Source of the DNA: a virus
Length of the DNA: 64,000 nucleotides
Virus record (IMG/VR): IMGVR_UViG_3300031952_000015
Span: 6,146-70,145 of that record
Strand: one strand, 5' to 3'
Below, in pieces: positions 12,220 through 64,000 of the stretch. The notes beneath the pieces were generated by a model that saw only the letters and a program-made list of their open reading frames with translations, ran no database searches and was not told where the DNA came from. Every line of letters starts with the position of its first letter. Position 1 is the first letter of the stretch. The translations under genes were made by a program, and so were the position numbers.

Positions 12220-14451
12220 TTAAATGCTTTGCTCCTTTTTCCGTGACTTAGGAGCTTTCTTGATGTCCAATGTCTCCCACGGGTAGTCCTGGAAGACAGA
12301 CCTCAGGATGCGCTCAGATGGCGGCCAGATGATGTGCGACCAATAATGGTCTTGATCGTATCCTGACGTGTAGCTCTCAGAGTAGATCGGCATCTTTCCC
12401 TTCGGGCCCTTGATGTAGATGTGCGAGATCTTCTGGCCGACCATGACCTCAGCGCCGCACTCGATCATCTGCTTCGCGACCAGCACATGCGGGATCGCGG
12501 TCTTGTACTCGATGATTGGCTTCGTCAGCTCCTTGTAGAGGAGGACATCGTCCTTCGTCAACTGACCAATCTGAACCAACGTCCGCTGAGCTGAGAGGTA
12601 TTCGAAGATCTCTAGCGAGGACTTGCCATTGAAGATCATGTCGATCACTGTCCGCTGCATCCTTAAAGCAAAGGCCGACTGGTCAGTCCTCACGAGCTCG
12701 ATCCCCTTGCAGAAGAATCTCGGTTCGATCTTCTTACCCTCATCCCAAGTCTGGACTCCAGCGTAGCGCTTCTTCGTGCCCTTCTCCTTATCGCCGACGA
12801 AGATCATCTGCTTGACTACCTTCTCGAACTTCATCTCAATCTTTCGGTCCTCTGGCGCGATGTTGAAGTTCCCAAGCAACGTCAAGTAAAAATCATTAAG
12901 CTCCTGCGTGAGCTTCTGTCCCAATGCAATCTGCTCGTCCAAGTTGTCCTTGTTGATCTTCACGAACAGGGAATCAGTGTCGATGTAGATAACTTGATAG
13001 CCCTTCTCCTCAAGGAAATTCTTGCTGATCTTGATGAGCCATCTCCCTGCCCGGGTGACTGAGCCAGCGATGTCGATGTGGTAGTATCTTGAGACTGGGT
13101 TGCCCATGACGCCGTAAAAACTGAGCAGGATGACCTTCGGCACCTTCTCCAAGATGTCATACAAGACCCACTCTGGCGTCCCCTTATCGAACGCATTGCG
13201 CTTCCGCAAGTAATAATTCCGCTCATCCTCAAGTCCAGTAAGAATTTGAGGGATGACTCCCTTGATGTCCTTCGCAAACCAAGCTGAATCATCTTCTGGG
13301 ACGTAGATCTTCTCCTTGCCAGCTCGCAGCGTTTCTGGTGAGATATTCCAACTTTGCATGATGCGATTGTAGAGCGACTTGAAGTCCAATATCAAGATAC
13401 CTCGATGCAATCCGGCCGGCGGCTCCTGCACATATCCTCCAACGAACGAGGTGCGCGTCGCCTTTGACTTCGGCCGGTACGGGAACCTTAACCCGAGCTT
13501 CAGCTCTCTCACCTTCCTAAGAATCATGTTGTCGATGATGATGGTCGGGAATCTTACCTCCTCAAGAAGACAATTCGTCTTTGAGCTCAACGAGTCTAAG
13601 ATCTGAGTGATCTGGAACTTCTCATCTATTTTCTTCATGAGCTTGCAATCCATGACATTGTACTCCATCAGCTTCTGCTTGTCCTCAAGGTAGGTCTCGA
13701 TCACCTTCTTGCCCAGCTTGATCTTCGTTTCTCCGAGCTCTGCGAGCGCGACATCATTCAGCGCGTACGACCGCATCCGCTTCATTTTGATGAACCTAGC
13801 CATGATGTCAAACTTCTGGAAGTATCTCCAGTTCAACTCTATCCCAAGCCAATTGCATCGCTCCTCCAAGTATGGGAAGTCAAACCCGTCGCCGTACCAC
13901 GCGACCAAGACATCGTAATCCTTCACAGCATTGTAGAAATCGCGGATAAGCCTCCGCTCGCAGTCTCGGTCCTTGTGGTTCTCGTTGATGAAGAACTTTA
14001 CCTTATCATTCTGATCGACGCACGCGATGCTCAAGATCGGATACCGACCAACATGAATCTCTGAGATCGTGTCATCTGTCTCGATGTCGATGTAGAGGAT
14101 CTTGAGTTTGTCAGTCCCTACCGGGGTGAGTGTGTCAATCAAGTACCGTCTCCAATATGGGATGTCTGACTCATAGGTCTTGACTCCAGCAACCTCAAGC
14201 GCGTCTCGGATCTTGTAGACCATGCCAGCTCTCTTGAGATACAGCTTAGCATACTTCCCCGTATACTCGACATCTGAGATCTCGCGAATCCGGGTGTACC
14301 GTTCGACTGCAGGATGCCCGCGATCGCCAGCTCCGATGATGATGTAATGCCTGAACACGGGGTAGTCGATCACCTGCTCGAACTTGTTGTCGCCATCCCG
14401 GTAAAGCAAAGTTATGGCATTGAACTTCGTCCAAGCAGAAACAATCCTCAA
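12220..14451 (-). CDS. polB: Family B DNA polymerase with 3'-5' exonuclease
   Basis: ExoI YIDIET, ExoII WYGDGFDFPYL, ExoIII YNVMD, motif A DFKSLYN, motif B KVILLSFYG, motif C YIDTDS, KKRYAG, KGIELVR. Confidence 0.96.
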   Translation of the reverse strand: MRIVSAWTKFNAITLLYRDGDNKFEQVIDYPVFRHYIIIGAGDRGHPAVERYTRIREISDVEYTGKYAKLYLKRAGMVYKIRDALEVAGVKTYESDIPYWRRYLIDTLTPVGTDKLKILYIDIETDDTISEIHVGRYPILSIACVDQNDKVKFFINENHKDRDCERRLIRDFYNAVKDYDVLVAWYGDGFDFPYLEERCNWLGIELNWRYFQKFDIMARFIKMKRMRSYALNDVALAELGETKIKLGKKVIETYLEDKQKLMEYNVMDCKLMKKIDEKFQITQILDSLSSKTNCLLEEVRFPTIIIDNMILRKVRELKLGLRFPYRPKSKATRTSFVGGYVQEPPAGLHRGILILDFKSLYNRIMQSWNISPETLRAGKEKIYVPEDDSAWFAKDIKGVIPQILTGLEDERNYYLRKRNAFDKGTPEWVLYDILEKVPKVILLSFYGVMGNPVSRYYHIDIAGSVTRAGRWLIKISKNFLEEKGYQVIYIDTDSLFVKINKDNLDEQIALGQKLTQELNDFYLTLLGNFNIAPEDRKIEMKFEKVVKQMIFVGDKEKGTKKRYAGVQTWDEGKKIEPRFFCKGIELVRTDQSAFALRMQRTVIDMIFNGKSSLEIFEYLSAQRTLVQIGQLTKDDVLLYKELTKPIIEYKTAIPHVLVAKQMIECGAEVMVGQKISHIYIKGPKGKMPIYSESYTSGYDQDHYWSHIIWPPSERILRSVFQDYPWETLDIKKAPKSRKKEQSI

Positions 14452-17267: not shown

Positions 17268-17957
17268 TCACCCCCTTGCTTTCTGCTTCCGCAGTTGTGC
17301 CTTGATAAGTGAGATGAGCTTCTTCTCGGTGGCTGCTGCGTAGGCTGCGTAGTAGGCTGCGGAGGCTGCGTAGTAGGCTGCGTTGGCTGCGTAGGCTGCT
17401 GCGTAGGCTGCGTAGGCTGCTGCGTAGGCTGCTGCGGAGGCTGCTGCGTAGGCTGCGTAGTAGGCTGCTGCGGAGGCTGCTACGTCGGCTGCTGCGTAGG
17501 CTGCGTAGTAGGCTGCGGAGGCTGCTATGCGATTTTCTTCGCTCGGCTCTTTCAGCCATGCCTCTGCCGCTTCTATCGCCTGTCGCGGTCTTTTGTCCTG
17601 CGGATATTTCGTCTCGAAATTCTTAAGGCATTTCTTCGCTGCCCAAATCGCGAACTTCACCGATACCTCTTTGAGGTTCTCGACCTCTTGCACGATGCGC
17701 ATCTCCTCTGAACAGAACTTGTCGTCCTTCTCGTGCAGCACCTTGCCCCGTGCCTCAACGATAAACAGCCGAGGGCCATACACGTAAGACTGGAATGCCT
17801 TAAGCGGCGATTCGCAGGCATGGAAGCCCGCATTGCACATCTCCAGTTTGCCCTCGTGCTTCTTCCACGCGCCGAGCTTCCACTTCTCGATAGTGCCGTT
17901 CTTGCTTGTCATGTCCTCCTTGAGGAACTTATAGCCTTTGATTGTCTTTGCTCTCAT
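17268..17957 (-). CDS. Phage protein with CxxGFHAC domain, Imm5-like helical part and Ala/Tyr repeats
   Basis: GYKF...LEMCNAGFHACESP; DKRPRQAIEAAEAWL; AAYYAAYAAA tract. Confidence 0.7.
   Translation of the reverse strand: MRAKTIKGYKFLKEDMTSKNGTIEKWKLGAWKKHEGKLEMCNAGFHACESPLKAFQSYVYGPRLFIVEARGKVLHEKDDKFCSEEMRIVQEVENLKEVSVKFAIWAAKKCLKNFETKYPQDKRPRQAIEAAEAWLKEPSEENRIAASAAYYAAYAAADVAASAAAYYAAYAAASAAAYAAAYAAYAAAYAANAAYYAASAAYYAAYAAATEKKLISLIKAQLRKQKARG
17330..17527. repeat. Low-complexity coding repeat built from GCTGCGTAG-type units
   Basis: Tandem ggctgcgta / ggctgctgcg units encoding the A/Y/S tract. Confidence 0.9.
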
Positions 17958-19042: not shown

Positions 19043-19410
19043 CCGTACTCGAATGGAGGGAGATCGTCATCCTCGTCCCAGATCTTAGCTCCGCTTGGGT
19101 AGATGACCCCGCTGTGATAGATCCCAGCATGACCAGCATCATCGTGGATCTGGACGTGCTTTGTCTTAGGATTCCAAGCGATTGAGACGCTCCCGACCCA
19201 ATCATCTGGATACCGATGGTAGTTGACTGCGGTCGCGACTTGCCCGATCAAGCTGTAGAGATTACCGATAGTTGGAGCATCCGCAGTGCAGCTCTCTTGG
19301 AAGAATTCTAAAAGATCTTCATACTCGATGTAGTCCTCCAATCCAGATGGAATCCGCTTGAAGATCCCGGTATCAGAATCCATGATCTCAAGTTGTGGTT
19401 TGTCGCTCAT
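19030..19410 (-). CDS. Hypothetical acidic protein
   Basis: 126-aa ORF coupled to the TS-like gene. Confidence 0.55.
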   Translation of the reverse strand: MSDKPQLEIMDSDTGIFKRIPSGLEDYIEYEDLLEFFQESCTADAPTIGNLYSLIGQVATAVNYHRYPDDWVGSVSIAWNPKTKHVQIHDDAGHAGIYHSGVIYPSGAKIWDEDDDLPPFEYGCPS

Positions 19411-20093
19411 TTGTTCTCCTCCAATAGCTTGTCCATCTTATCCCAATGCTTCTCGTAGATGTGGAGGCTGCCGCAGTGGTGGAAGTACTTTCCGACTCCC
19501 ACGTTGAGCTCTGAGGCCATCCGCTTCTGCATCTGAGTGAAGCAATAGATGTCATTCCGAGTCCCGTAGTAGATGTCTTGCGACCGCATGTAGGTGTGCC
19601 AGTCGAGATTCCCGTCGCGCAAGAAGACGTGGAGGTACATTGTGCAGGGGAGATCCTTCGTCGGCTTCTCCTTATCATACGCTGAGTTGATGTTGATGAC
19701 GCACTGCCGAGAATCTGGATCCTCCCTGAGCTTCTTGACCACCCAATCCCACTGGTTGATTCCGATCTTAGGGTCCTTACCGAAGATCCGATAGCCATAG
19801 GCCGAATTCACAGTGATGCCGTCGTCTGAGAACTTCTCCCACGTCCGCTTGATAGTATCTGAGAAGTCGATCCGATTCGAGCCAGAGTAGTACCACTTGA
19901 GCTCCTCCTCAGCGTACTCAACGTTCGTCTCGAACCCCGGCAGAGTCACCTCATTGTAGCACGGATTAATCTCAAAGGTGAATCCAAAGACCTCTCTGAC
20001 ACTCATCCTGCGCGGAGCGGTGACGAGTCCCGCATCTCTCAACGTCCTGAGAGCTCTCAAGTACTCATGATTCACTGTCTCCACCAGATCCAT
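19407..20093 (-). CDS. Thymidylate synthase family protein, probably dCMP hydroxymethylase or methylase
   Basis: NSAYGYRI, DPDSRQ, catalytic PCT, MRSQDIYYGTRND, GSLHIYEKH; Asp rather than Asn at the base-specificity position. Confidence 0.8.
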   Translation of the reverse strand: MDLVETVNHEYLRALRTLRDAGLVTAPRRMSVREVFGFTFEINPCYNEVTLPGFETNVEYAEEELKWYYSGSNRIDFSDTIKRTWEKFSDDGITVNSAYGYRIFGKDPKIGINQWDWVVKKLREDPDSRQCVININSAYDKEKPTKDLPCTMYLHVFLRDGNLDWHTYMRSQDIYYGTRNDIYCFTQMQKRMASELNVGVGKYFHHCGSLHIYEKHWDKMDKLLEENK

Positions 20094-23810: not shown

Positions 23811-24770
23811 TTAGACATCTTTGATCCCTCCACGGGTGATGATGAATGGTGCCTCGCCGTCCGGGAGGTGCGGAGCGTCGACCAGCTTCGCGACCTTAGT
23901 CCCCCTGGACCCCTTCCGCAAGTAGATGCGGTACATCGCATTGTGGCCGACGATATGGCCGCCAACTGCTCGAGTCGGATCGCCGAACAATTGGCCTGGA
24001 TTCACCATGACTTGGTTTGTGACATAGACGATGACGTTGTAGATGTCGGCGAGCCGTGTGAGGTGCTGGAGATGTTTGTTGAGCTTCTGTTGCCTCTCAG
24101 CGAGCGTCCCTCGCCCGAGGTACTCCCCCCTGAACGCGGCAGTAAGACTGTCGACGACGATGAGCTTCACAGGGAGCTTGTCGTCGGTGATCAGCCTCTC
24201 TGCCTTCTCAGCTAAGAGCATCTGATGGTCGGTCGAGTAGGATCGCGCATATTTTATGTTCTTCAAGACCAACTCTCCATCGATGCCGGCAGCCTCCGCG
24301 ATCTCCCGGATCCGCTGCGGCCTGAAGGACCCCTCGCTGTCAATCCAAATGCACACGCCGCTGTGGGGCTCTTTTTGGACGTTCACTGCGAGCTGATGGG
24401 CGATCTGCGTCTTGCCAGAGCTGAACTCGCCATAGCACTCAGTGATGCTCCCAGACTCGAACCCGCCGTCGATGAGCGCGTCGAGCTTCTCGCTCCCGAT
24501 CTTGACATGGAAGATCTTCTTCCGATATTCTTCCTGCTCGAACCCAGTCTTGAAGTCTAATCCGCAGAGCTCTCGCGCCGCGTTGATCAGCTTCATGGTG
24601 GAGAGCTTGTTCATCTCAGTGAGATCCATCACGTCGGCCACTGAGGCAGTCGCGATCTTCATCAAGGTGGAGTAGCCGGCGTTGATCAGCTTCTCCGCAG
24701 TCGCTGGTCCGACTCCAGGCAGGTCGGTGATCTCAGAAACAGTCTCCTCAGTCTCGGGCTTCTTCTTCAT
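23811..24770 (-). CDS. radA: Archaeal DNA recombinase RadA
   Basis: HhH DLPGVGPATAEKL, Walker A GEFSSGKTQ, IDSEGSFRPQRI, VVDSL, GRGTLAERQQKL, TNQV, GGHIVGH, KLVDAPHLP. Confidence 0.96.
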   Translation of the reverse strand: MKKKPETEETVSEITDLPGVGPATAEKLINAGYSTLMKIATASVADVMDLTEMNKLSTMKLINAARELCGLDFKTGFEQEEYRKKIFHVKIGSEKLDALIDGGFESGSITECYGEFSSGKTQIAHQLAVNVQKEPHSGVCIWIDSEGSFRPQRIREIAEAAGIDGELVLKNIKYARSYSTDHQMLLAEKAERLITDDKLPVKLIVVDSLTAAFRGEYLGRGTLAERQQKLNKHLQHLTRLADIYNVIVYVTNQVMVNPGQLFGDPTRAVGGHIVGHNAMYRIYLRKGSRGTKVAKLVDAPHLPDGEAPFIITRGGIKDV

Positions 24771-27650: not shown

Positions 27651-28364
27651 CTACTTTGACATCGCCTCCTTGCGAATCTTCTCGACATGAGCTTCGACTC
27701 CCTTATTAAACCTTATCACATAGCTCGGGTGCTGGACTGTGACGACCTCAGGCATTGGGTGCTTTAAGTCTGAGAAGGCTTTCTCGGCATGCTTCAGGGC
27801 TCCCTGGACCCCCTTAGATGCGACGCTGCCGAGGCATATAATCTTCTTAGGCTTGAGGTTCTTGATGGCCGCAGTGAGATCCTGGATGCCCTCCTCAATG
27901 ACCTCCTTGAGATCTTTCATCTGAGCTCCTGGGCAGTATGTGTTGAAGACATTCGTCAAGTAGATGTTGTGCAGTCCCTTGATAGCCTTCTCGATCAGAT
28001 CTCCGGTCCGGTTGCCGTGGAAGACCTCAAGATTCTGGTCCTTCTTCCGCTGGCGTCCTGGGCACATGCCGACAATCATCGTGCAATTATTCGTCCGATC
28101 GACGTCTCTCGGCGAGTACTTGATCCGCTTGCTCGTGTCAGGGATCCTCGCCATCGGCTCGACTGCATTGATTGGTTTCTCGACCTTGACCTCATCCTTC
28201 TTCAGCTTCAGTCCTTTCCCACCGCACTTCGGGCACTCGAGATCTCTTTCGAGCCCATAGCATTTCTTCTCATAGTTGCACACAGTGCAGCTCCAAATAT
28301 CATAGCATCCGCTGCGGTCTTCTATTGTCATTAAATTCTTCTTCTCCCATACCACGTCGTTCAC
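27651..28364 (-). CDS. Uracil-DNA glycosylase superfamily protein (family 4/5-like) with N-terminal zinc ribbon
   Basis: MIVGMCPG, FHGNRTG, YLTNV, PKKIICLGSVA, HPSY; CTVC...CPKC. Confidence 0.75.
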   Translation of the reverse strand: MNDVVWEKKNLMTIEDRSGCYDIWSCTVCNYEKKCYGLERDLECPKCGGKGLKLKKDEVKVEKPINAVEPMARIPDTSKRIKYSPRDVDRTNNCTMIVGMCPGRQRKKDQNLEVFHGNRTGDLIEKAIKGLHNIYLTNVFNTYCPGAQMKDLKEVIEEGIQDLTAAIKNLKPKKIICLGSVASKGVQGALKHAEKAFSDLKHPMPEVVTVQHPSYVIRFNKGVEAHVEKIRKEAMSK

Positions 28365-30395: not shown

Positions 30396-31295
30396 TCATC
30401 TTGACATCACCTGCGGCGCGATCTTGACTGCCTTGTGGAGCGAGTCGAACATCGCCTTCTTGCTCGTGTAGCCAGTCTTGTCGTTGTGCCAGATCCCAGC
30501 AGTGAGGTCGTTGTAGACCTCCCACATCGCCGGCGCCCGCGCAAGGGTGACCTTATCCTTCTTCTTGTCGATGGAGATGTAGCTTGGTATGTACTTCTTC
30601 GGGACTGCCTTGATGAGCTCTCTCGCTGTCGCGATGGTCAAGGTCTCCTTCTGGAGCCGCTTGTACTCGCCGATGATTGCTCGTCCCTGTTCGACTACGT
30701 TGAGCATCGTCTGCTTCAGCGTGTCAGTGGTCAAGTTCTTCGTGTGCCGCTTCGTGACATAGTTTAAGACATTGCGGTCGTCGAATGCTTGCCCGCGTCC
30801 CTTCACGCCGATCAAGACCATGTTGGCGCATGCGTGTCTGAATGTAAAGGTCGACATGCTCAGCCCGAGGGAGCTATCTATAGAGTTGTGGACAGCAAAC
30901 CCAAGCTGGATGGTGTCTCCCTTGCCAAGATCATACGGGTCGTCAAATGCGTACAGCGCATGGCCTTGAGCGCGCTTCTCGCCAGTCAAGAATGTGTGCT
31001 TGTCGACCTTCTGGTACCAGCTCCCCTTGAACTCAGAGAACGGCACGGCGCCGACCAGCGTCGCGATCTCATCGGCCGCGCTGAACATCTCCTCATTCGG
31101 CAGGAGCTTGTACTTGTCGCCGACAATCGACGCAAGCTGCCCTTTCTGGATGATCGCCTTGAATGGGACATCCGTGCCCTTGTGCTGCAGAAACTGCTCC
31201 TGCAAGCCATGCGACTTCCACTTGTCGTCTACCTTCCCGACCGTGAATGTGTATATGGTCGGGTCTTTCGTTGCTGTGCTCGTCTTGTCTCTCAT
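30396..31295 (-). CDS. DUF932-like phage/plasmid protein
   Basis: IVGDKYKLLPNEE, NSIDSS, FRHACANM, WEVYNDLT; GGAGGTGA RBS. Confidence 0.75.
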   Translation of the reverse strand: MRDKTSTATKDPTIYTFTVGKVDDKWKSHGLQEQFLQHKGTDVPFKAIIQKGQLASIVGDKYKLLPNEEMFSAADEIATLVGAVPFSEFKGSWYQKVDKHTFLTGEKRAQGHALYAFDDPYDLGKGDTIQLGFAVHNSIDSSLGLSMSTFTFRHACANMVLIGVKGRGQAFDDRNVLNYVTKRHTKNLTTDTLKQTMLNVVEQGRAIIGEYKRLQKETLTIATARELIKAVPKKYIPSYISIDKKKDKVTLARAPAMWEVYNDLTAGIWHNDKTGYTSKKAMFDSLHKAVKIAPQVMSR

Positions 31296-55183: not shown

Positions 55184-56161
55184 TCAGGCTGTGCCCTTGC
55201 AGATGGCGTACGGGTAGATCACGGCCAGCACGTACGACATGAGGCCGACGACCTCACGATCGTATGGGCGACCCGGGATCGCGCCCTCGTAAGTCTGCAG
55301 ATCTGACTCCTTGATCAGCATCGCAGCCTTCTTGTTGTCAAGCACAAGGTACTTGGCAGCTGTGAGGAACGGCGTCTCCACGAGCTTCAAGTTGCCGAAT
55401 ACCAACGCGGGGCGGTTGATGACGAACTCGTCACCAGGCCGTGCGTTGGCATAGTACACGTGAGCTTTCCACTCAGCAGTCTTCTTGAGCGTGCCTGACT
55501 CAGATGTCGCAAGCACCAGGCGGTTCGCCAGGAAGCCGTAGGGCACGCCGTTCGCGTACACAGCAGCGTTGACCTTGGTCTCCGAGTTGATGATGTTGTC
55601 GTAGGTCGTTCCGCCGCCCTGTGAAGATCCGGCGCCGGCTGCGAGCCCGTTCACGATGTCAGTGGCGAGCTTCCTTGTGATGGCGTCAGCTGCGTTCTGC
55701 AGGACGAACTTCACGAAGTCGGTCATGCCCCTCTTCATGATCTGCCATGTGAGCGCAGTGCCCGCGACCACTGGACGGCAGGTGACTGTGATTGAGTCAG
55801 CACCCTCGTCGAAGTAGTTCACGACCTGGCCTTCTGCGATCTCGTAAGCGATCGTGGGCAGCAAGCGCGGGATCTGGTATGCGCCGAATCCGCCCTTGTT
55901 CAGGAGATCGTTGTTCATGAAGACAAGCTCCATGATGTCCTTGATGTTCTCGATGGCCGCGCTGTAGAGCGTGGTCGAGAGCATTGTGGTGTAGGCGCCG
56001 CTACCGGTCGTTGTGGTCACGTCCTCCTTGAACGTGATGCCGAACGATTCGGCGAGCACTCGCGTCTCTGGCTTGGCTGCGAATGACTCAGCGAGCAGCT
56101 TTCCAGCCATCTCTGTCAACTGGTTGCCGTAGTTTGTGAACTGCGGCGCTTTGTATGCCAT
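55184..56161 (-). CDS. Major capsid protein (HK97 fold)
   Basis: 325 aa after protease and scaffold; IAYEIAEGQ, ADAITRKLATDIV, FGNLKLVETP. Confidence 0.85.
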   Translation of the reverse strand: MAYKAPQFTNYGNQLTEMAGKLLAESFAAKPETRVLAESFGITFKEDVTTTTGSGAYTTMLSTTLYSAAIENIKDIMELVFMNNDLLNKGGFGAYQIPRLLPTIAYEIAEGQVVNYFDEGADSITVTCRPVVAGTALTWQIMKRGMTDFVKFVLQNAADAITRKLATDIVNGLAAGAGSSQGGGTTYDNIINSETKVNAAVYANGVPYGFLANRLVLATSESGTLKKTAEWKAHVYYANARPGDEFVINRPALVFGNLKLVETPFLTAAKYLVLDNKKAAMLIKESDLQTYEGAIPGRPYDREVVGLMSYVLAVIYPYAICKGTA

Positions 56162-56178: not shown

Positions 56179-56784
56179 CTAACTGTACAGGACCCTGCTA
56201 AGAGCCCTTCCGATGTTCTCCTTGTCCGCTCTCTCGGTCTTCACCGTCTCGGTGAATGCGTTGACGAGCTTCGCCTTCTCTGTGAGAGGCGGTTGCGGCT
56301 CCTCCTCGTCCTTCTCTGGAACTAAAGGAGCGGTACCTTGACCCTTTTCTCCCTCGAGCGCCTCGACTCTCTTCGAGAGCTTCTCGAGGATCTCGACGAC
56401 CTTGCCCATGTCATCCTCATACTGCTCGCAGAAGTGCTCGAGCACAGTCTGCTCGGCTCCCTGCTTCTTCGAGAGGTCGTCCTGAGATGCGGTCTTGGCA
56501 TTCAAGTCAGTCCCGCCAGCGGCGATGTTCGTCGCGGGCTCGGTCTGCTTGTCATTCTCAAGTTCGCCCTCTTGGTACTTCTTCCCGAGGTCATCCTGAG
56601 ATGCTTTCTCGGGATTCGGTGTCGTTGTCCCCTGGGTGATGTTCGCGCCAGGCTCTGCCTGGACATCTTTCTCACGTACGTTTTCCCTTTGACTTTTGGC
56701 CATCGCCAGATCCTCCCTCAACTTTCGATTCTCTTCCATGACATTCTTGAGCATTTCCCTTGGTTCCATGGTCACACCCGCCAT
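56179..56784 (-). CDS. Scaffolding protein
   Basis: Acidic coiled-coil protein between protease and MCP; internal repeat QxEPxxNIxxGxTxxNxxxASQDDLxKK twice. Confidence 0.7.
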   Translation of the reverse strand: MAGVTMEPREMLKNVMEENRKLREDLAMAKSQRENVREKDVQAEPGANITQGTTTPNPEKASQDDLGKKYQEGELENDKQTEPATNIAAGGTDLNAKTASQDDLSKKQGAEQTVLEHFCEQYEDDMGKVVEILEKLSKRVEALEGEKGQGTAPLVPEKDEEEPQPPLTEKAKLVNAFTETVKTERADKENIGRALSRVLYS

Positions 56785-56826: not shown

Positions 56827-58089
56827 TTAATGGTAGGAAAAGGGCGACCTCACGGTGCCCCGCTTGGCGTCCTCGAGTATCTTCGAGTAGACCGTCTCGG
56901 CATCAGTGGCGGTCGGGTAGGCGAACGTCCAGAAAGCAGAGCCTAGCTTGACGATGTACCCGAAGCCCTCATACTCCTCGATGCTCAAGACCCCGAGCTT
57001 AGTCTCAGCCTTCTTGACTGTCTTCTGCTCTCTGAATCTCATCATCTCGGCGAGCGCCTCTGCCGGCGGGATCTCGCTCGTGATCTTCGATGCCTTGAGC
57101 TCATCCTCCATCTTCGCAAGGTGAGTGTAGTAGTCAGGGAATTCTGCGAGATGCGCCTTTGCGATCTGCTTCGCTAAGTCCTTGTCATCTGTGTGCTCAG
57201 TCTCAACCTCGGCTCCCGCAGCAAGCTGAGATGGATCGAATTTGTCGTCCGGGTCATCTCCATGCTTGAGCGTCGAGAGCGCCTCCTTGAATGACTCAGT
57301 GTCCTTCTTGCCGACGATCTTCGTTGGCGCCATCGCGCCTCCCCCAGTCGTGGTTGTGACGTCCTCCTTGCACTCGGCGACTGCAGCTACTGGCCGAAGC
57401 TCCCCATACGGAGCCTCGGACTCAGAGCCGTCCTCCCACTTGACCTTCGCGGCATTGGCCGAGAAGCCTGTCACGTCTCCCCTCCTTCCCTGGGCGTCGA
57501 TGATCTTGTCGCCAATCTTGAACGGCACATCCATCTGCTCGAGATTGATATTTGTCCCTGGCGGGGATCCGAGGGCCTCCGCGAACTTCGCAGTAGTATC
57601 GAGGAATCCAGGCGCTGGGACAATGGATCCCTCGATGATGTCCGAGACCCATGCCTCAGTGAACGTCCTGCCAGTAGACTCCTCGAGCCGCTCGATGACC
57701 TTGCCGCCGAGGAGCTGGATCGAGACGTGCCGCAGGTCCTCGCGCTTGAGCTTGCCGATCAGTTCTTCCTCTCTTGGGTCGATGTCGGCCTTGTAGTGCC
57801 AGCCGTCGTCCTCAAGCCACGACTCGATGAAGTGGCCCTTCGGCATCATGTCAGTATCTACCTTGTGGTTGTACATCACTGGCCGTCCGATGAGCTGCTT
57901 GTGCTTCTCCCTGATCGACTCAACATTGTACAGCACGTTGTTCCGCGAGATCTTCCCGAACGGGAGCAGCAGTCCCTCCATGATAAACTTTTTCGAGCCG
58001 GTCTGCGGGTTAATTGCTTCTGCGAACCGGAACGGGCTCTCTGACGGGATCCAGATCTTCTCAGTGAAGATCCTCATGTTCTCTGCCAT
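56827..58089 (-). CDS. Prohead protease (clan SH) with appended C-terminal mini-domains
   Basis: SRNNVLY, RPVMYNH (His), RHVSI (Ser), EGSIVPAPG; then an SH3-like module, a DUF5661-like GAEVETEHTDD...AKAHLAEFPDYYTHL module and a beta-beta-alpha module. Confidence 0.85.
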   Translation of the reverse strand: MAENMRIFTEKIWIPSESPFRFAEAINPQTGSKKFIMEGLLLPFGKISRNNVLYNVESIREKHKQLIGRPVMYNHKVDTDMMPKGHFIESWLEDDGWHYKADIDPREEELIGKLKREDLRHVSIQLLGGKVIERLEESTGRTFTEAWVSDIIEGSIVPAPGFLDTTAKFAEALGSPPGTNINLEQMDVPFKIGDKIIDAQGRRGDVTGFSANAAKVKWEDGSESEAPYGELRPVAAVAECKEDVTTTTGGGAMAPTKIVGKKDTESFKEALSTLKHGDDPDDKFDPSQLAAGAEVETEHTDDKDLAKQIAKAHLAEFPDYYTHLAKMEDELKASKITSEIPPAEALAEMMRFREQKTVKKAETKLGVLSIEEYEGFGYIVKLGSAFWTFAYPTATDAETVYSKILEDAKRGTVRSPFSYH

Positions 58090-58093
58090 GATT

Positions 58094-60028
58094 TCACCTC
58101 TTGCTCTCGCCGTAGGCGAGCGCTCTCCACATCCGATTGAGGACGCTTGAGACGCCCTCCTTCTTCTCTGTGATCACTTGAGTGCTGTAGTCCACTAATT
58201 GCTTCTGAGTGTCACTCGGGACCTCTGACCATGATCTGGCGGCTAAGCTCTTGTCAGCGTGGACTGACTGGAGCATCTCTTCTTTTTCCTCCATCGACAG
58301 GATGTTTGTCCACCAGAACTCATTGCTCTCTGATCTTTCCGTGAACTTCTGAGACATCGCTCGCGCGTAGGACTTCTCGAACTCCTCATCTACTTTTTTC
58401 GTCTCCTCTGGAGTGAGGTCCTTCGGGCTCTTCTTGAAGAGCTGCTGAGCGATCGCCTGATAGTCTTCGACTGGGCTCTGCTCTCTGAGATTCTCGATCC
58501 CGAACAGCCCCTTGATGAACTTGCTCGCGATCTTGTAGATGGCTGCCTCGATGTCAGGCACTGGGATCCCGATCTGATCAGCGAGCTCGTGGACCATCTC
58601 GTCAGTCGGGTCTGGGTTCATGGCAAGGAACTTCACGACCTTCACGACCAAATCGTCTGGGACTGCTGACTCGCACTTAGTCACAATGCTCTCGATGAGC
58701 GTCACATTCGCTGGGTCGAAAGCACCATGCTTCAGATAGCCGTCGAGGTCCTTCTGGATGTCCGCTGGAAGAGACTCCCAACTTAATTTCGCCCAGGCTT
58801 TCGTCTTCTCGCTCGGGAAGTAGCCGATCACTTGGAGGAACTTGACTTTCCCAGACTCGTCAAGCGATTGCCATTTGTTCCGTCCACGATAGAGTCGTGG
58901 ATCGCCTTCCTTGAGCGATTCGTCCTTAAACAAACCCCAATTCGGGTCATAGTCGGGTTCCCACCAACCGAGTTGCATAGAAGGAGGATTCTTCTGCCTA
59001 CGCAACTTGTCAGCACACGACTCACAAACTTCACCAATGCCCTTAACGTCATAGTAGATGGCTTTCTTTGGCTCCGCTGGTAGTTGGCGTACTGGTATTT
59101 TCTTTTTGCAGATGGAACATACCGGAGGTTTGTCATTTTCCGTAAAAGATTCCCGTTTATTTCCATACTTCTCCTTGAGCGACTCCCCAAAATCAACAAA
59201 TCCACATTCAGGACATTTATACTTTCGGTCAGCAGTTCCGAGAAGCGCACCACACTTCTTGCAGTGAAAGTCGTAGGGATTTTCTTTTCGTTCTTTAGGC
59301 GATGGAACGTCTCGTTTTTCTTTGAACGACTCCATCCGGCTCTTCGCCTCGGAAATCAGAGCTCGCGCCGCGTTGATCGGGAACCCTCGCTCGTTGACGA
59401 GCCAAGAGAAGATTGTCTTCTCAGTCTCGCCTTGCTTGAGCTTGTCTTGGATCTGCTTGAATGCTCCATCGCTCTCTGCGAGCGACTCTCCTCTGCGCTT
59501 CTGTGACATCATGATGGCGACGTGCTGCGCTATCGCGTCCTTCTTAGAATCGTGGCAGGCGATGACGCTCCCTGCGGGCTTGTCAGTCTTAGATCCAGGC
59601 TTCTGAGGATGCCCGTGCAGGACGCACCACTTGTCGCCGCGCTTCGCGATTGTCTCCTTGCAAGCTCCTTTTTCGAACAATGGCATCCCCTTCTCGCGCT
59701 TGTATTGAGAGTAAAGCTGCATCATGTCCCCATCTGTCTCGGCTTCAAGGTTATGCCCTGCCTTGAGGACCCAATCTAAAAAATCCTTGCTGAAGTTCTG
59801 CTCGACCCACTCAGGGCTGACCTCTGAGAAGGATTCTTCCTTCTGCTCCGCAGCTGCGATGACGACGTTCGCGACGTCGGGATCGACACTGAACCGGTCG
59901 ACGATAAGCTCCTTGATCTGGGATTTCGGCTTTCCGAGCTGGAGCTGCACCCGCGCGTAGCGAACCATCTGCTCCTGCCAGCGCGGAACTCTCTCACTGA
60001 GCCTCTCTAATCGTTCTCTGAATCCCAT
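58094..60028 (-). CDS. Modular polyprotein B (about 10 mini-domains separated by ES(F/L)xE-type motifs); putative internal head protein
   Basis: N-terminal MGFRERLERLSE; linkers ESFSE, GACKE, ESLAE, ESFKE, ESLKE, ESFTE, ESLKE, ENLRE, KFTE. Confidence 0.75.
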   Translation of the reverse strand: MGFRERLERLSERVPRWQEQMVRYARVQLQLGKPKSQIKELIVDRFSVDPDVANVVIAAAEQKEESFSEVSPEWVEQNFSKDFLDWVLKAGHNLEAETDGDMMQLYSQYKREKGMPLFEKGACKETIAKRGDKWCVLHGHPQKPGSKTDKPAGSVIACHDSKKDAIAQHVAIMMSQKRRGESLAESDGAFKQIQDKLKQGETEKTIFSWLVNERGFPINAARALISEAKSRMESFKEKRDVPSPKERKENPYDFHCKKCGALLGTADRKYKCPECGFVDFGESLKEKYGNKRESFTENDKPPVCSICKKKIPVRQLPAEPKKAIYYDVKGIGEVCESCADKLRRQKNPPSMQLGWWEPDYDPNWGLFKDESLKEGDPRLYRGRNKWQSLDESGKVKFLQVIGYFPSEKTKAWAKLSWESLPADIQKDLDGYLKHGAFDPANVTLIESIVTKCESAVPDDLVVKVVKFLAMNPDPTDEMVHELADQIGIPVPDIEAAIYKIASKFIKGLFGIENLREQSPVEDYQAIAQQLFKKSPKDLTPEETKKVDEEFEKSYARAMSQKFTERSESNEFWWTNILSMEEKEEMLQSVHADKSLAARSWSEVPSDTQKQLVDYSTQVITEKKEGVSSVLNRMWRALAYGESKR

Positions 60029-60030
60029 GA

Positions 60031-63000
60031 TCATCCCCAGAACTGCTTTTTCATCGTGTCTCCACGACCGTGAGGCCAGGTAGCTGGATTCGCGTAGAGG
60101 CTGCCGCAGACCGCAGCTGGGTCTTTTGCGAACCCTGCAGACTTCGCCCAGTCCATGCACTTGTCCCAGCCGGCCTTCGGCGGGCGGTCATCCTGTTCCT
60201 TGAAGGACTCGCGGAGACTCTCGATGCGGCTGCGGAAGGACTCCTTCACGAGATACTCGGTTGGAACCTCTTCAACACTTCCGTCGGGATGCTGCACCTT
60301 TGCCGTGCGATGCTCAACGTCATCAAAATTAAGAATCGTCATCACTGGCGATTCCGGTGCTCCTGCGAACTTTACTTTATCTCCTTTCTTGAGTGCTTCC
60401 TTGAAGGACTCCCTCAGTTTTCTCCAATCGGCGGGATGGCTCGACATGTATCTATTTGCTCCGGCCACTGCGTCTTGTTTAGATTTGAAAAAATTAATTT
60501 CAATATTCTTGCCGGTCGCTGGCCTGTATACATTGTACGCCCACTCATCCTTGCCAGTTGCTGGATTCTGATATTGACCGATCTCCACGACAGTTTCCTG
60601 GGGTTTCCAATCGGACCATAACCCTTCCTTGAAGGACTCTCCGCCCCATTTGGGCTCTTTCGCTTGCTTGTATCTCTGGTCGAGATCATCCTTGAGTTGC
60701 CCTTTCTGGCTGCTCGTCAAGTCTGACTTGTCGATGAGAGATCTCGTCGACTTCACTTGGAATGCGACATCTCGAATATCATCAGCCGTCTCGAACGTGA
60801 GGTCGATGAGCTTCTTGAACCCATCCAATGTAGTCGGGTGGAAATCATCAGCTTCCTTGAAGGACTCCTTCATCATTCTTACAGTCTCATCAACGAAGGT
60901 CTTCTGTTGTTGGGTGAGTTCATCATACCTCTTCTTGAACAGTTTGAGAGCCCAATCATTTTTTTTAAAATTCGCCTCCTTGAAGGACTCAGGGAACTTC
61001 CATCCCTTCGCAAGAAGTTCATCTGCCTCAGTCCGGGTCTCAACAGTCGTAACCCCGCCGGTTCGCGGATTCACTAGATGATACACTTCCTTGAAGGACT
61101 CCTTAGTTTTTTTATCAATTTTACGCTTCGCGTCTGTGACTGCGGCAGATTCAGATGGGAAAGGACCATAGTCCTCCGAACCCCATTCTTCATCCTCTTC
61201 ATCCCAAAAGATACGACTTCCCCAATCCTTATCCTCAACATCATAAATAACATTCACGTCATATCCTTTATATTTAAACACGGTCACTTTTTGCTTATCT
61301 ACTTTCTCACTCATTTTTTCCTTGAAGGACTCCTTCGCTTTCGCCCTTCGCTGGAGGAGCAGTGACCACAGCTGAGACTCAGCCCAATCACTCGCTTCAT
61401 CTTCAGTCTTGAATCCGCCCTTGCTGTTGAGATGGGTGCTTCCCTCGAAGGTGACATTCCACGTGCCGTGGCGCTCTTGCTCTACCTCGTAGAGCTTCTC
61501 CTTCGGCTCGCCTTTCTCCTTAAAGGACTCCTGAGCCATTGCATCCTTTATCTTCTTGGCTGCCTTGTTGATTTTCTCAGCCGCATCTTTGTCGCCAGCA
61601 GCAGCAGCAAAAAACAACGCATCTGCCTGCTCATTCGTCAGATTGTACTTAGACATCAATTCGGCCTTGACCTCTCCCACCGATGCCTCCTTAAACTTGC
61701 AGGCTTCCCTCTTGCCGTACCTCTCCCTGAGCTGCCTGAGCGGCTCTGCGGTATCCTCGATGTGCTCCATAGAATTTCCCCCCGTCCACGTTGCGACCAT
61801 ATCCTCGAGTTCGCTTTTGTTGATGACTATGGTTTTTGTAGCTCCATCCATGAGGACTGTGATCTCGTTCCCGGCGACGTCCTTGACGATCCCAGTCGCG
61901 CTCTTTAGCTTCGGCTTGAACGTAAACCGCATCCCAGGATGGATGCTCTCCTTGAGAGACTCTTCCTGCTCTCCTGCCTCGGGAGGATTCAACAGCATTC
62001 CATTCCTCGCTCGCGCGCCGGGGGTCCTCAACTCGCACGCCTGATAGTGTCCCTCTGAGCCGATGCCGAATCCGCATCGCGAACAATACCCATAGGTCTC
62101 TCCTTCCTGTTCCTTGAAAGACTCCAACCGGCTACGGAATGATTCCCGATGTGTTGCTATGTAATCATTCGCCCACCGTTCAGCTTCAGATTTATCCTTG
62201 AATTCATGAGTGACAATGGCTGGATGGATAGCATTCCCGAGCCGGTCCGTGTTCCACAGCGACGCCCACCATTTGCCAGATGAGTCAGTCGTGAGATTCA
62301 AGGCCTTCATGGTCTTCTTGTTCATCCAGACGTCCTTTCGCTGCTCTTCCCAGGATTCTTTAAGAGACTCCTTGTTCGGGTAGTTCTGGAGCTTGGCCTT
62401 GACATTCGGAAGCTCGATCTGGTACGCCTCCCCTCCTTGGACGACCCGCTTGATCTTGCCCTTCTGTTCGCTGCCCCCCATGTCATGGAAGCTGACCTGC
62501 TCGCCAGGCTTGAACTCGACCTGCTCTTTGAGAGATTCTCCCATCTTCGCTCCATCGCGGATCATCCGCGCTCTCTGCTGTTCTTCTCTTGACAATTCTC
62601 CGTATTCCTTCTTGAAGAATGCTCTTGCGATCGCGTCAAGATCGTCTGTCCCAGTCGCTTCCTTGAGCGACTCCAGCCGGCAGCGGAAGGATTCTGGCCC
62701 ACCAAACGAAACGCTAACATCCTTTCCTCCAGCCTTAGAAATCTTATCCGCCTCTTCGTCCGCTTGTGGTCCCGGAACTTTTTTAGTATGGAATTTCCCA
62801 TTCTTATCTGTCCAGTCAATGCTGGCCATTCCTCGTTGCTTTTTTTGAATTAAGTCTGGCACATCGACTTTTATCTCTTTGAAGGATTCTGCCTTCGGCA
62901 TCCGCTGAGCCTTGAGCGCTTCGTCTGCGACTTTCTTTCCTAATTCGGTAAGCTCTCCGCCCTTGACCCAGCCCAAGGCCTTTGAGAACTGTGAGTTGAC

Positions 63001-64000
63001 CATCTGAGTCTCGATGTCTTCTCGCGAGAGCGATTCCTTGAGTGACTCATTCATCGGGAACTCTCCCATCAACCGAACTACGTTATCCTTCGCTCCCGCG
63101 TAGTCCTTCTGTAGAATCGCGCTCTTCAAGTCATCCATCAACAATTGGACGTCTGAATCATCCAACGGCGCGAGTCCGTCAAGTCGCTTCCATGCCTGCA
63201 TAGCATCATCCCATCGCTGAGCGAGAATAAATCCCTTGAGGTCGTCAAGGGTGTCATATCCTTCGCCTTCCTTGAAGGACTCCTTCTTCGAGTCAAGTGC
63301 CTGGTACTTAGATTTCATCTTATTGAAGAAATCCTGAGCTGACGACCTGGTTTTGAAATCCCTGTCGAGCTCTTTGATTACTTCTCTGGTCCTCAGGTCT
63401 TCTCCCCAGGTCGACCAATAGGTCCCCTCTTCGGTGTCGTTCGTCTCATCAAGACCGAGTGCGTACTTTTTCCCATACCAACTATCGATCACGTCCGTCC
63501 CGGAGGACTCCTTGAAGGACTCAGAGAGCGATTCAAGCCGATTGCGAAATGACTCACCATAAAACTTGTCATCGAATGCCGTGTTGACCTTAGTCTTCTG
63601 GTCATCTGAAAGATCGACGTACTTCTTGCCAAACATCTTCTGAGAGAGATCATCTTTCTCTCCAGAAAGCTTTTCCCTGAAGGACTCCTTGATTTTGACT
63701 CCTTGCGCCTTCAAATCTCTGATAACGTCTTTGACATATTCAGCAACCCTTGAAAAATCTGCCGGTGGCACTTCACGCTTAAATGCAGCAAGAACCATAG
63801 CAACAGTTTCGCCGCGCGTCAATCGCTCTTCTGCATCATCGATGAATCCTTGCATCTCATCATCACTCATTTTTTCCTTGAAGGACTCCTTCATCATTCT
63901 TACAGTCTCATCAACGAAGGTCTTCTGTTGTTGGGTGAGTTCATCATACCTCTTCTTGAACAGTTTGAGAGCCCAATCATTTTTTTTAAAATTCGCCTCC
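60031..64000 (-). CDS. Modular polyprotein A (over 1320 aa, 5' end outside the window; at least 21 mini-domains separated by ESFKE/ESLKE); putative internal head protein
   Basis: The frame stays open to base 64000; more than 20 ES(F/L)(K/R)E linkers at roughly 30-80 aa spacing. Confidence 0.8.
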   Translation of the reverse strand, partial: EANFKKNDWALKLFKKRYDELTQQQKTFVDETVRMMKESFKEKMSDDEMQGFIDDAEERLTRGETVAMVLAAFKREVPPADFSRVAEYVKDVIRDLKAQGVKIKESFREKLSGEKDDLSQKMFGKKYVDLSDDQKTKVNTAFDDKFYGESFRNRLESLSESFKESSGTDVIDSWYGKKYALGLDETNDTEEGTYWSTWGEDLRTREVIKELDRDFKTRSSAQDFFNKMKSKYQALDSKKESFKEGEGYDTLDDLKGFILAQRWDDAMQAWKRLDGLAPLDDSDVQLLMDDLKSAILQKDYAGAKDNVVRLMGEFPMNESLKESLSREDIETQMVNSQFSKALGWVKGGELTELGKKVADEALKAQRMPKAESFKEIKVDVPDLIQKKQRGMASIDWTDKNGKFHTKKVPGPQADEEADKISKAGGKDVSVSFGGPESFRCRLESLKEATGTDDLDAIARAFFKKEYGELSREEQQRARMIRDGAKMGESLKEQVEFKPGEQVSFHDMGGSEQKGKIKRVVQGGEAYQIELPNVKAKLQNYPNKESLKESWEEQRKDVWMNKKTMKALNLTTDSSGKWWASLWNTDRLGNAIHPAIVTHEFKDKSEAERWANDYIATHRESFRSRLESFKEQEGETYGYCSRCGFGIGSEGHYQACELRTPGARARNGMLLNPPEAGEQEESLKESIHPGMRFTFKPKLKSATGIVKDVAGNEITVLMDGATKTIVINKSELEDMVATWTGGNSMEHIEDTAEPLRQLRERYGKREACKFKEASVGEVKAELMSKYNLTNEQADALFFAAAAGDKDAAEKINKAAKKIKDAMAQESFKEKGEPKEKLYEVEQERHGTWNVTFEGSTHLNSKGGFKTEDEASDWAESQLWSLLLQRRAKAKESFKEKMSEKVDKQKVTVFKYKGYDVNVIYDVEDKDWGSRIFWDEEDEEWGSEDYGPFPSESAAVTDAKRKIDKKTKESFKEVYHLVNPRTGGVTTVETRTEADELLAKGWKFPESFKEANFKKNDWALKLFKKRYDELTQQQKTFVDETVRMMKESFKEADDFHPTTLDGFKKLIDLTFETADDIRDVAFQVKSTRSLIDKSDLTSSQKGQLKDDLDQRYKQAKEPKWGGESFKEGLWSDWKPQETVVEIGQYQNPATGKDEWAYNVYRPATGKNIEINFFKSKQDAVAGANRYMSSHPADWRKLRESFKEALKKGDKVKFAGAPESPVMTILNFDDVEHRTAKVQHPDGSVEEVPTEYLVKESFRSRIESLRESFKEQDDRPPKAGWDKCMDWAKSAGFAKDPAAVCGSLYANPATWPHGRGDTMKKQFWG
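60198..63888 (-). repeat. Dispersed 13-bp repeat GAGTCCTTCAAGG (encodes ESFKE)
   Basis: Exact copies (plus strand ccttgaaggactc) start at 60198, 60399, 60627, 60855, 60978, 61089, 61320, 63270, 63510 and 63876, with further variants. Confidence 0.9.
63874..64000. repeat. Exact duplicate (at least 127 bp) of module 60853-60979
   Basis: Base-for-base identical, offset 3021 bp (in frame), bounded by the ESFKE repeat. Confidence 0.92.

Follow-up and report, generated by a model that had tools for sequence, protein, structure and literature searches.

Two module-chain reading frames beside the prohead protease of a probably archaeal tailed virus: candidate precursors of head-internal proteins

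Introduction

The prohead protease of bacteriophage T4, gp21, cuts after L/I-X-E, and that of phiKZ, gp175, cuts after S/A-X-E (PMC9026906). The internal proteins of the T4 head carry N-terminal targeting propeptides of 10-19 residues, which gp21 removes (PMC9026906). Polyvalent proteins, as surveyed by Iyer et al. (2017), show a paucity in archaea, and the examples of over 1000 amino acids (aa) given there are almost all bacterial (PMC5512222). Here, we describe two long open reading frames (ORFs), polyproteins A and B, which lie directly upstream of the prohead protease gene in IMG/VR record IMGVR_UViG_3300031952_000015, which consists of a single viral contig of 70,145 bp. The window analyzed comprises 64,000 nucleotides (nt), positions 6146-70145 of that record. 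Both ORFs are strings of small modules delimited by a stereotyped pentapeptide, ES(F/L)xE. A first-pass annotation, made from the letters of the window, had read them as precursors that the prohead protease cuts into dozens of small proteins packaged in the virion. Its coordinates and sequence strings all proved correct, and its overall interpretation is partly supported by the comparative analysis reported here.

Results

Two reading frames punctuated by one pentapeptide

Nearly all genes of the record are carried by the minus strand. With the contig closed, their order is portal, A, B, protease, scaffold, major capsid protein (MCP) and then tail genes including Baseplate_J (Table 1). The protease gene lies between the portal and the scaffold/MCP genes, and the gene order in relatives is the same as in the window. 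Polyprotein A comprises 1322 aa within the window and 1793 aa from its first methionine if the contig is closed as a circle, a figure that rests on a 112-nt overlap of the contig ends inside an exact repeat of 124-127 nt. Polyprotein B is open over 58094-60160 on the minus strand, and its true start is likely the ATG at 60034, which forms with the stop codon of A an ATGA overlap of the kind typical of translational coupling. The stop codon of B is followed after 4 nt by the ATG of the protease gene (58089). From this overlap and spacing, the A, B and protease genes are taken to form one tight late operon.

The linker was defined as ES[FL].E, and overlapping matches were counted unless stated otherwise. 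Exactly 21 linkers were found in the in-window part of A, for which at least 21 modules had been claimed, 25 in full-length A, and six in B. In the 65 other ORFs (16,388 aa), the motif occurred twice, once in the protease tail and once in a methyltransferase. In residue shuffles of A (n = 2000), matches averaged 0.135 and did not exceed 2, compared with 23 non-overlapping matches observed. The strict motif splits A into 24 segments and B into seven; the roughly 10 modules earlier assigned to B are reached only if its C-terminal tail, 270 aa without the strict motif, and a 116-aa segment are subdivided. The segments between motifs measure 11-270 aa, mostly 36-84 aa. The modules are mostly unrelated, as had been proposed: when 32 segments were compared with one another by BLASTP, 19 of 496 pairs reached E <= 0.01, of which six align the long form of the linker alone, one is an exact duplicate (A05 = A20), and the rest belong to two small paralogue families.

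The long form, ESFRxR(L/I)ESL(K/S/R)E, accounts for four of the in-window A linkers. Akin to it is a 12-residue leader, (A/G)FRE(D/R)L(K/E)RL(N/S)E, found at the N-termini of A (twice) and of B, where it reads MIMGFRERLERLSE. When 1200 aa of A were modeled with AlphaFold2 (AF2) from the single sequence, the mean predicted local distance difference test score (pLDDT) was 41.3; values of about 70 or above were reached at query residues 268-310 (module A11) and 931-993 (module A21), each stretch lying within one module. The modules look Zn-ribbon-like, SH3/KOW-like, small alpha/beta or helical. Pfam searches with A and B yielded weak, sub-cut-off matches to Zn-ribbon, KOW and DUF families and nothing else, and the final 270 aa of B found no usable match in the ESM Atlas. 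An exhaustive search with A returned nine proteins at E <= 0.001 among 1.84 billion representatives, and most modules are therefore orphans. Word-indexed searches with A (8000 scored candidates) gave one match each, P0001 among proteins of near lengths and P0002 among shorter ones.

The adjacent gene encodes a protease modeled with the gp21 fold

Profile comparisons said little about the protease: its Pfam match to PF04586 (Peptidase_S78) had an E value of 0.064 and 13.8 bits (cut-off 21), with DUF5661 recognized in the tail; NCBIfam gave no family match, and PDB sequences searched with a profile of the protease domain contained none at E <= 10. A homologue search collected 60 proteins of 241-645 aa, the window's own included, in which an N-terminal domain of about 175 aa is conserved and the module tails are variable; a precomputed PF04586 match was present in five of the 60. 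His75 and Ser123 are invariant throughout and are the putative catalytic pair.

The AF2 model built on the 60-sequence alignment reached a mean pLDDT of 80.9, with most of the domain between 83 and 97. In a Foldseek search of the PDB, the top matches were three chains of T4 gp21 (5jbl; E 6e-7 to 1.6e-6, probability 1.0), with a template modeling (TM) score of 0.63-0.65 normalized to the target. The next matches were the proteases of Kaposi's sarcoma-associated herpesvirus (KSHV), human cytomegalovirus (HCMV), varicella-zoster virus (VZV), Epstein-Barr virus (EBV) and herpes simplex virus (HSV). Because the best fold matches in the PDB are T4 gp21 and then the herpesvirus proteases, the model identifies the gene product as a capsid-maturation protease of the assemblin fold.

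The tail of the protease contains a beta module (residues 190-227), the helical DUF5661 (261-338) and an alpha/beta module (355-409). Low-confidence stretches of the model lie at residues 161-182 and 235-260, with a dip at 331-350, and the strings KFAE171, ECKE242 (followed by DVTTTT), ESFKE269 and RFRE354 are located in or beside such stretches. The ESFKE of the tail sits between two folded modules. A complex prediction for protease residues 1-175 with a 61-aa fragment of A containing a long linker returned a score of 0.00 and "no answer", which is evidence neither way. When the protease was compared with GenBank phages by tblastn, the DUF5661 segment alone matched, in four records; the MCP gave no match in the same type of search.

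The linker shares its tripeptide with a maturation-like site of the capsid protein

The matches of the MCP to Pfam Phage_capsid (E 3.3e-4) and TIGR01554 (E 2.3e-3) were both below cut-off. When 12 distinct related MCPs were aligned around a site near the N-terminus, P3 was F in 12 of 12, P2 was K in 11 (Q once) and P1 was E in 12 of 12, followed by D-(V/I)-T-T; in the window, ITFKE precedes DVTTTT. The F-K-E of the linker is thus the tripeptide at the apparent maturation site of the MCP. A D(V/I/M)TTxTGxGA motif was found in 40 of the 60 protease tails, preceded by E in 38 of the 40 and with K before that E in 19; P3 was variable in these tails (K 14, F 3 and L 3 of 40). The F/L at P3 put forward in the first-pass annotation is therefore not general. 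The 10-residue string D(V/I)TTTTGxGA directly after Glu is common to the protease tail and the MCP N-terminus; it could represent a common maturation site, or the protease could mimic the N-arm of the MCP.

The same annotation had pointed to looser (F/L/C)-x-E strings in the protease tail, scaffold and MCP. All are present, but the triplet is common, and only the ESFKE of the tail and the MCP N-terminus stand out. Per 100 aa, 62 other ORFs contain 1.09 such triplets, the scaffold 1.99 and MCP residues 1-60, with four copies, 6.67; given this background, the loose triplet alone was rejected as evidence.

The scaffold ends in a C-terminal motif, PQPP(L/M)TE(S/K)A...(L/V)xG/YS, which is conserved in relatives and in protease-scaffold fusions; scaffold and protease are fused in five homologues (P0031, P0044, P0048, P0049 and P0051). 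By analogy, the (L/M)-T-E of this motif could be a release site like the M-site of herpesviruses.

Linkers and modules in related viruses

IMG/VR and JGI metagenomes were scanned with the MCP and protease alignment, which gave 45 loci in 35 groups at >=95% nt identity. The presence or absence of linker ORFs was scored in the 14 groups whose sequence extends 1500 nt or more beyond the protease on its upstream side. An upstream ORF with at least two ES[FLY][KRS]E motifs was found in three of the 14, so that the linker-punctuated ORFs looked for beside the proteases of relatives do occur, and in the same position, but in a minority of the groups. The ORF that directly precedes the protease in L016/L017 is at least 918 aa long and has seven linkers, and its modules differ from those of A and B; the upstream ORFs of L018/L020 and L003/L019 have three and two linkers, respectively, and L039 has two within 850 nt of upstream sequence. 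By tblastn, homologues in the 45 loci were found for the last A segment (one of 24 A segments) and for one B module alone.

In L001-L007, the polyprotein region is occupied by separate small ORFs. Three of those in L004 begin M(R/K)YTEKLxxLHxE, and a small ORF of L016 begins with the long form of the linker, ...SYKERLNTLHSE. The 12-residue leader, a pattern defined post hoc, is present at the N-termini of A (twice), B and small ORFs of L004 and L016. The long-form pattern had 19 non-redundant matches in the window and the loci, 18 of them on the gene strand upstream of a protease.

Fusions connect the modules with the protease directly. P0001 (852 aa) consists of a diverged protease, 24% identical to that of the window over the alignment, directly followed by ESFKE-delimited modules; three are identical to A05/A20, A17 and A23 in changed order, and the protein ends in a homologue of the last module of A. 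P0002 (639 aa) is a module chain with DUF5661, a copy of A12 and ES(F/L)xE-type linkers. P0005 and P0006 are protease-module-scaffold fusions that include the last-module family, and single modules have stand-alone homologues in P0004 (84 aa) and P0009 (60 aa). In P0008, a PolyA_pol head domain (E 5e-14; PolyA_pol/CCA-type nucleotidyltransferase) is inserted between modules. The link to the prohead protease drawn in the first-pass annotation is borne out by such protease-polyprotein fusions, by the gp21 fold match and by the conserved F-(K/Q)-E before D of the MCPs.

Further domains were observed in this set. A rubrerythrin domain (precomputed PF02915) is present in the protease tail or module chain of P0056 and P0061, and L014:8538-9731 encodes a weak kinase-like domain with a ParB-like end. 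A motif of approximately (A/E)P(K/E)G(V/A/K)(A/S)V(Q/K)(K/R/T)G(V/P)(R/H/S)GG(H/M/Q)YY(D/E)T recurs in head-region ORFs (L014:6782-9731, L003:6036-7439 and P0002).

Modules are exchanged at the linkers

The stretch was found in two public sediment metagenome runs, X1, its probable source, and X2, from another study; none of the runs holding it is recorded as RNA, and they have no bearing on expression. One X2 contig contains the blocks 60196-60396, 61318-61532 and 60851-60998 of the window in changed order, and a second contains 62522-62658 alone, with unlike sequence on both sides. The blocks share about 99% DNA identity with the window (0-1 differences in 137-215 nt). They correspond to A23 (residues 1673-1739), linker plus A17 (1294-1365), linker plus A20 (1472-1521) and A12 (919-964), and their ends fall at linkers. 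At the joint between 60396 and 61318, the last Glu of A17 meets the first residue of A23, and 16 nt fit both sides. Since the blocks are nearly identical, reordered and bounded at linkers, the modules are units of recent horizontal exchange, with the linker as the seam.

A20 and A05 are encoded by the two copies of the repeat R (Table 1). In X1, Logan contigs break at a 139-nt repeat unitig (60853-60991) with a depth of 16, compared with 9.2-11.8 for its neighbors, as expected for a sequence present twice. The X1 contig between the copies (window 60962-63903, 2.9 kb) has a depth of 9.2 versus 11.4-11.8 in the flanks; part of the population may be without modules A06-A19, although such depths are no copy numbers.

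Table 1. Features of the head-gene region, in window coordinates.
Feature	Position	Strand	Remarks
HK97-type MCP	55184-56161	-	325 aa; weak profile matches
Candidate MCP N-terminal propeptide, residues 1-46	56024-56161	-	ends ITFKE, then DVTTTTGSGA; two AESF elements
Scaffold	56179-56784	-	201 aa, E-rich
Protease C-terminal tail	56827-57609	-	three further folded modules
Prohead protease domain, residues 1-160	57610-58089	-	fold model closest to T4 gp21
Polyprotein B	58094-60034	-	646 aa from ATG at 60034; 6 ES(F/L)xE linkers
A stop/B start overlap	60031-60034	-	ATGA, TGA of A and ATG of B
Polyprotein A, in-window part	60031-64000	-	residues 472-1793 of 1793-aa ORF; runs past window and contig end
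Repeat R, internal copy	60860-60991	-	encodes module A20 (ANFKK...) and linker
Repeat R, second copy (module A05)	63874-64000	-	cut by window/contig end; circular closure passes through

Host and other genes

The virus had been called archaeal, and a RadA that passes both NCBIfam archaeal RadA equivalog cut-offs (418.6 versus 259 bits and 410.2 versus 361 bits) makes an archaeal host likely; a scan of genome contigs with the protease alignment, in which none of 125 candidate stretches was confirmed, gave no provirus and no host clue. A replication and repair set on the minus strand (23811-24770, 12220-14451, 19407-20093, 27651-28364 and 30396-31295) comprises the archaeal-type RadA, a family B DNA polymerase, thymidylate synthase, a uracil-DNA glycosylase (UDG)-superfamily protein and DUF932.

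Intein-like elements were seen in several genes. The large terminase of the window (4927-7743, minus strand, 938 aa) is split by an intein that carries a LAGLIDADG homing endonuclease (Intein_splicing, LAGLIDADG_3, Terminase_6C), and in L027 an ATP-grasp-like ORF upstream of the protease shows, by eye, an intein-like insert. In the portal of L009 (3268-5934, minus strand, 888 aa), residues 775-885 form a Hint/Vint domain that immediately precedes the C-terminal ...HNCRCTYVAYE, and the portal of L001 ends ...HPSCRCTYVAYE without insert. The L009 insert looks like a mini-intein in the conserved C-terminal H-x-x-C-R-C motif, which is MuF/SPP1 gp7-like. Finally, a 229-aa protein in the early or middle region of the window (17268-17957, minus strand) combines DUF7666 with an Imm5-like immunity-protein domain and is possibly a counter-defense or immunity protein.

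Discussion

A candidate cargo precursor

We lean, by a small measure, toward the reading that A and B are precursors of head-internal cargo, that the prohead protease cuts them after S-(F/L)-x-E, and that their modules are exchanged as cassettes. The data show the motif counts, the fold and invariant residues of the protease, the F-K-E before D of the MCP, the retention of the linker in relatives with other modules and codons, and the exchange of modules at linkers; within this reading, we infer cleavage, the exact scissile bond, packaging and the function of the released proteins. Cargo fits better than a structural role because of the adjacency to the portal gene, the protease and scaffold fusions, the orphan modules with their fast turnover, and the occasional enzymes.

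A and B would be made late, from the one operon that runs from portal through A, B, protease and scaffold to MCP. They would then enter the procapsid, for which the likely signal is the amphipathic 12-residue leader, generalized as (F/Y)-(R/T)-E-x-L-x-x-L-x-x-E, or else the conserved last module. The serine protease with the predicted gp21 fold would cut after the Glu of S-(F/L)-x-E and release about 40 small proteins of 35-80 aa. ESFKE may be a shortened copy of the leader borne by the stand-alone small genes of relatives, and the polyproteins may have arisen by fusion of leader-plus-module units. A module with its linker would constitute a portable cassette, which co-occurring viruses could swap by recombination in the linker codons. 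That the released proteins are delivered with the DNA as host-takeover or anti-defense factors is a guess.

Several points weigh against this reading. Cleavage and packaging are pure inference. As P3 varies in the protease tails, the F/L-x-E rule is not general in the family, and as gp21 is effectively the sole tailed-phage prohead protease among the strong PDB matches, the fold match is silent on specificity. The AF2 model of A is too weak to argue for independent folding of the modules or against one continuous fold. None of the modules of A and B matched a known anti-defense or DNA-condensing family in Pfam and PHROGs. The full length of A depends on closing the contig through the repeat. 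The trait is patchy, with no linker or a single one in the upstream ORFs of 11 of the 14 groups. The count of 18 in 19 long-form matches upstream of proteases is descriptive, since the pattern was written after the examples had been seen, and is no independent test.

Alternative readings

It seems improbable that A and B form a sacrificial core or scaffold, cut at the linkers into fragments that leave the procapsid and only fill or shape the prohead, with no cargo delivered. The polyprotein genes have the protease and scaffold genes as neighbors, small fragments of 4-9 kDa would result, and T4 provides a model in gp22, gp67 and gp68, whose numerous cleavage fragments for the most part leave the head (PMC9026906). 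However, a canonical scaffold gene is already located at 56179-56784, and the cassette-like movement of modules and their complete turnover, with a tblastn homologue in the 45 loci for one of the 24 A segments, would be unexpected for a core; in addition, 11 of 14 relatives do without such ORFs.

A similarly low probability is given to uncleaved beads on a string: copies of the pentapeptide, or of the 12-residue helix, would act as spacers or would bind a partner such as the scaffold or the inside of the capsid, and the giant proteins would work intact, inside or outside the head. The AF2 model of A, at low confidence, predicts the long linker to be helical in places, and ES(F/L)K-like elements without the final Glu, AESFAAK in the window and EAFKAK in relatives, occur in the N-terminal region of the MCP, as would fit a binding motif. 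Against intact function, homologous modules occur as separate small genes and in other orders, the motif ends in F-K-E as does the sequence before the conserved N-terminal site of the MCP, and the same pentapeptide stands between folded units of the protease tail. In addition, prohead proteases of this fold are described as cutting after Glu in short motifs.

That the linker is mainly a recombination site at the DNA level, offering microhomology for shuffling and having no proteolytic role, appears very unlikely. Eight of the 21 in-window linkers share an identical 15-mer, GAGTCCTTCAAGGAA, and the 16 nt that fit both sides of the X2 joint would suit such a site. Yet the 21 sites comprise 13 distinct 15-nt versions, with synonymous changes in the Glu, Ser, Phe/Leu and Lys codons, and in relatives, whose GC content ranges from 0.28 to 0.47, the linker uses TCA, TCC, TCT, AGT and AGC for Ser and CTG, CTA, TTA and CTC for Leu. 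Because the codons vary and the peptide is kept, selection acts on the protein, and a purely DNA-level repeat was rejected; roles in recombination and as a peptide are not exclusive.

An assembly artefact, in which the long ORF would combine pieces of several viruses fused at linkers or at the repeated module, is likewise very unlikely. In its favor, the contig ends inside the 124-127-nt repeat, X1 contigs break there with a reduced depth for the roughly 3-kb piece between the copies, and another virus shares the repeat (P0001). Within the window, however, a single contig encodes the 1322 aa without a break, and the internal copy of the repeat has unique sequence on either side. Beyond the junction, the module-linker architecture continues and the portal gene follows, as in relatives; independent contigs (L016, L018, P0001 and P0002) show this architecture too, and linkers of 15 nt are in our judgment too short to mislead an assembler.

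Significance

A broader form of the cargo reading is tentative, and we hold it to be rather doubtful: plug-and-play cargo in archaeal tailed viruses, in which any small protein between ES(F/L)KE signals would be a cassette open to recombination into a polyprotein, and in which such cassettes, packaged together by one targeting element, would be released by the protease and delivered with the DNA as about 40 fast-evolving host-takeover or anti-defense mini-proteins. If the linkers are cut, this would be the first double-stranded DNA tailed virus seen with a true polyprotein strategy for its head-internal proteins, and the targeting-sequence principle of T4 would extend to a probably archaeal virus. 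ES(F/L)KE together with a gp21-fold protease would then be a readable signal for virion-delivered small proteins in metagenomes, and the roughly 40 orphan mini-domains would be candidate anti-defense or host-takeover factors, of which hardly any are known from archaea. Cassette exchange at linkers between viruses of different samples is a concrete case of horizontal transfer at the level of domains. The architecture suggests a way of loading many small proteins into a virus head together, and the linker signal could be put to use to load capsids with foreign proteins.

Comparison with known systems

Of the known systems, the internal proteins of T4, the multiply cut inner-body and ejection proteins of phiKZ-like phages and the polyvalent proteins come closest. 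A parallel also exists with RNA-virus polyproteins, such as those with picornavirus 3C sites, and cyanobactin precursors, in which many units are made in one product with a repeated protease site between them. Their proteases are unrelated and have no link to capsid maturation in double-stranded DNA viruses, so these multi-unit precursors serve as an analogy only. Herpesvirus assemblin has the same protease fold as modeled here. It cuts its scaffold precursor at R and M sites of the form (V/L)-x-A-S, between Ala and Ser. There, one short site is present in the protease precursor and in another capsid-assembly protein, and here D(V/I)TTTTGxGA follows Glu in both the protease tail and the MCP; no cargo polyprotein is part of the herpesvirus system.

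In the phiKZ group (phiKZ, 201phi2-1 and SPN3US, with gp175/gp245), head proteins are cut after the Glu of a three-residue motif, some of them at multiple sites (PMC9026906, PMC5694885, PMC10052503), and the protease itself is processed at its C-terminus (PMC9026906). The inner-body or ejection proteins of these jumbo phages are encoded by separate paralogous genes, in contrast to the chains of dozens of unrelated mini-domains with one pentapeptide found here. The literature consulted, including PMC8651126, describes no protein in which dozens of mini-domains are strung together by one stereotyped protease-like signal, in agreement with the first-pass annotation, which knew of no such architecture in archaeal viruses; supplements, such as the architecture lists of PMC5512222, lay outside this scope and might hold similar cases.

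Polyvalent proteins are likewise multidomain and encoded beside portal/MuF and other virion genes; packaging, delivery together with the DNA and processing by peptidases, assemblin-like in a few cases, are predicted for them (PMC5512222). A and B also have many domains beside virion genes, with the portal gene directly upstream of A; the C-terminal H-x-x-C-R-C motif of the portal is MuF-like by its pattern and gave no Pfam match. The differences lie in the composition. Polyvalent proteins have 2-15 mostly enzymatic domains (PMC5512222), whereas A and B have about 30 and 10 tiny non-enzymatic modules, and Pfam found in them no polyvalent-type enzymatic or anti-restriction domain (methyltransferase, helicase, ART, ArdC-N, MPTase and others). 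For polyvalent proteins, the assemblin-like peptidase is reported in a C-terminal position only (PMC5512222); A and B contain no processing peptidase, which is instead encoded by a separate downstream gene and stands N-terminally in P0001. No stereotyped linker is described for polyvalent proteins in the passages of PMC5512222 consulted.

A further close comparison is with the internal proteins of T4 (IPI, IPII, IPIII and Alt). These are small, variable head-internal proteins with a short N-terminal leader, which in T4 targets the prohead core and is removed after a Glu motif; the protease encoded here has the predicted gp21 fold, and S-(F/L)-x-E, the candidate site here, is compatible with L/I-X-E. 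The parallel with T4 and phiKZ drawn in the first-pass annotation holds and is strengthened by the comparative data. No similarity to T4 internal proteins was detected, A and B having no match at E <= 0.1 to internal-protein families in Pfam and PHROGs. In contrast to T4, the present system belongs to a 70-kb genome of an uncultured, probably archaeal virus. The units that T4 encodes singly are here concatenated in proteins of 1793 and 646 aa, and the leader seems to be reused as an internal linker.

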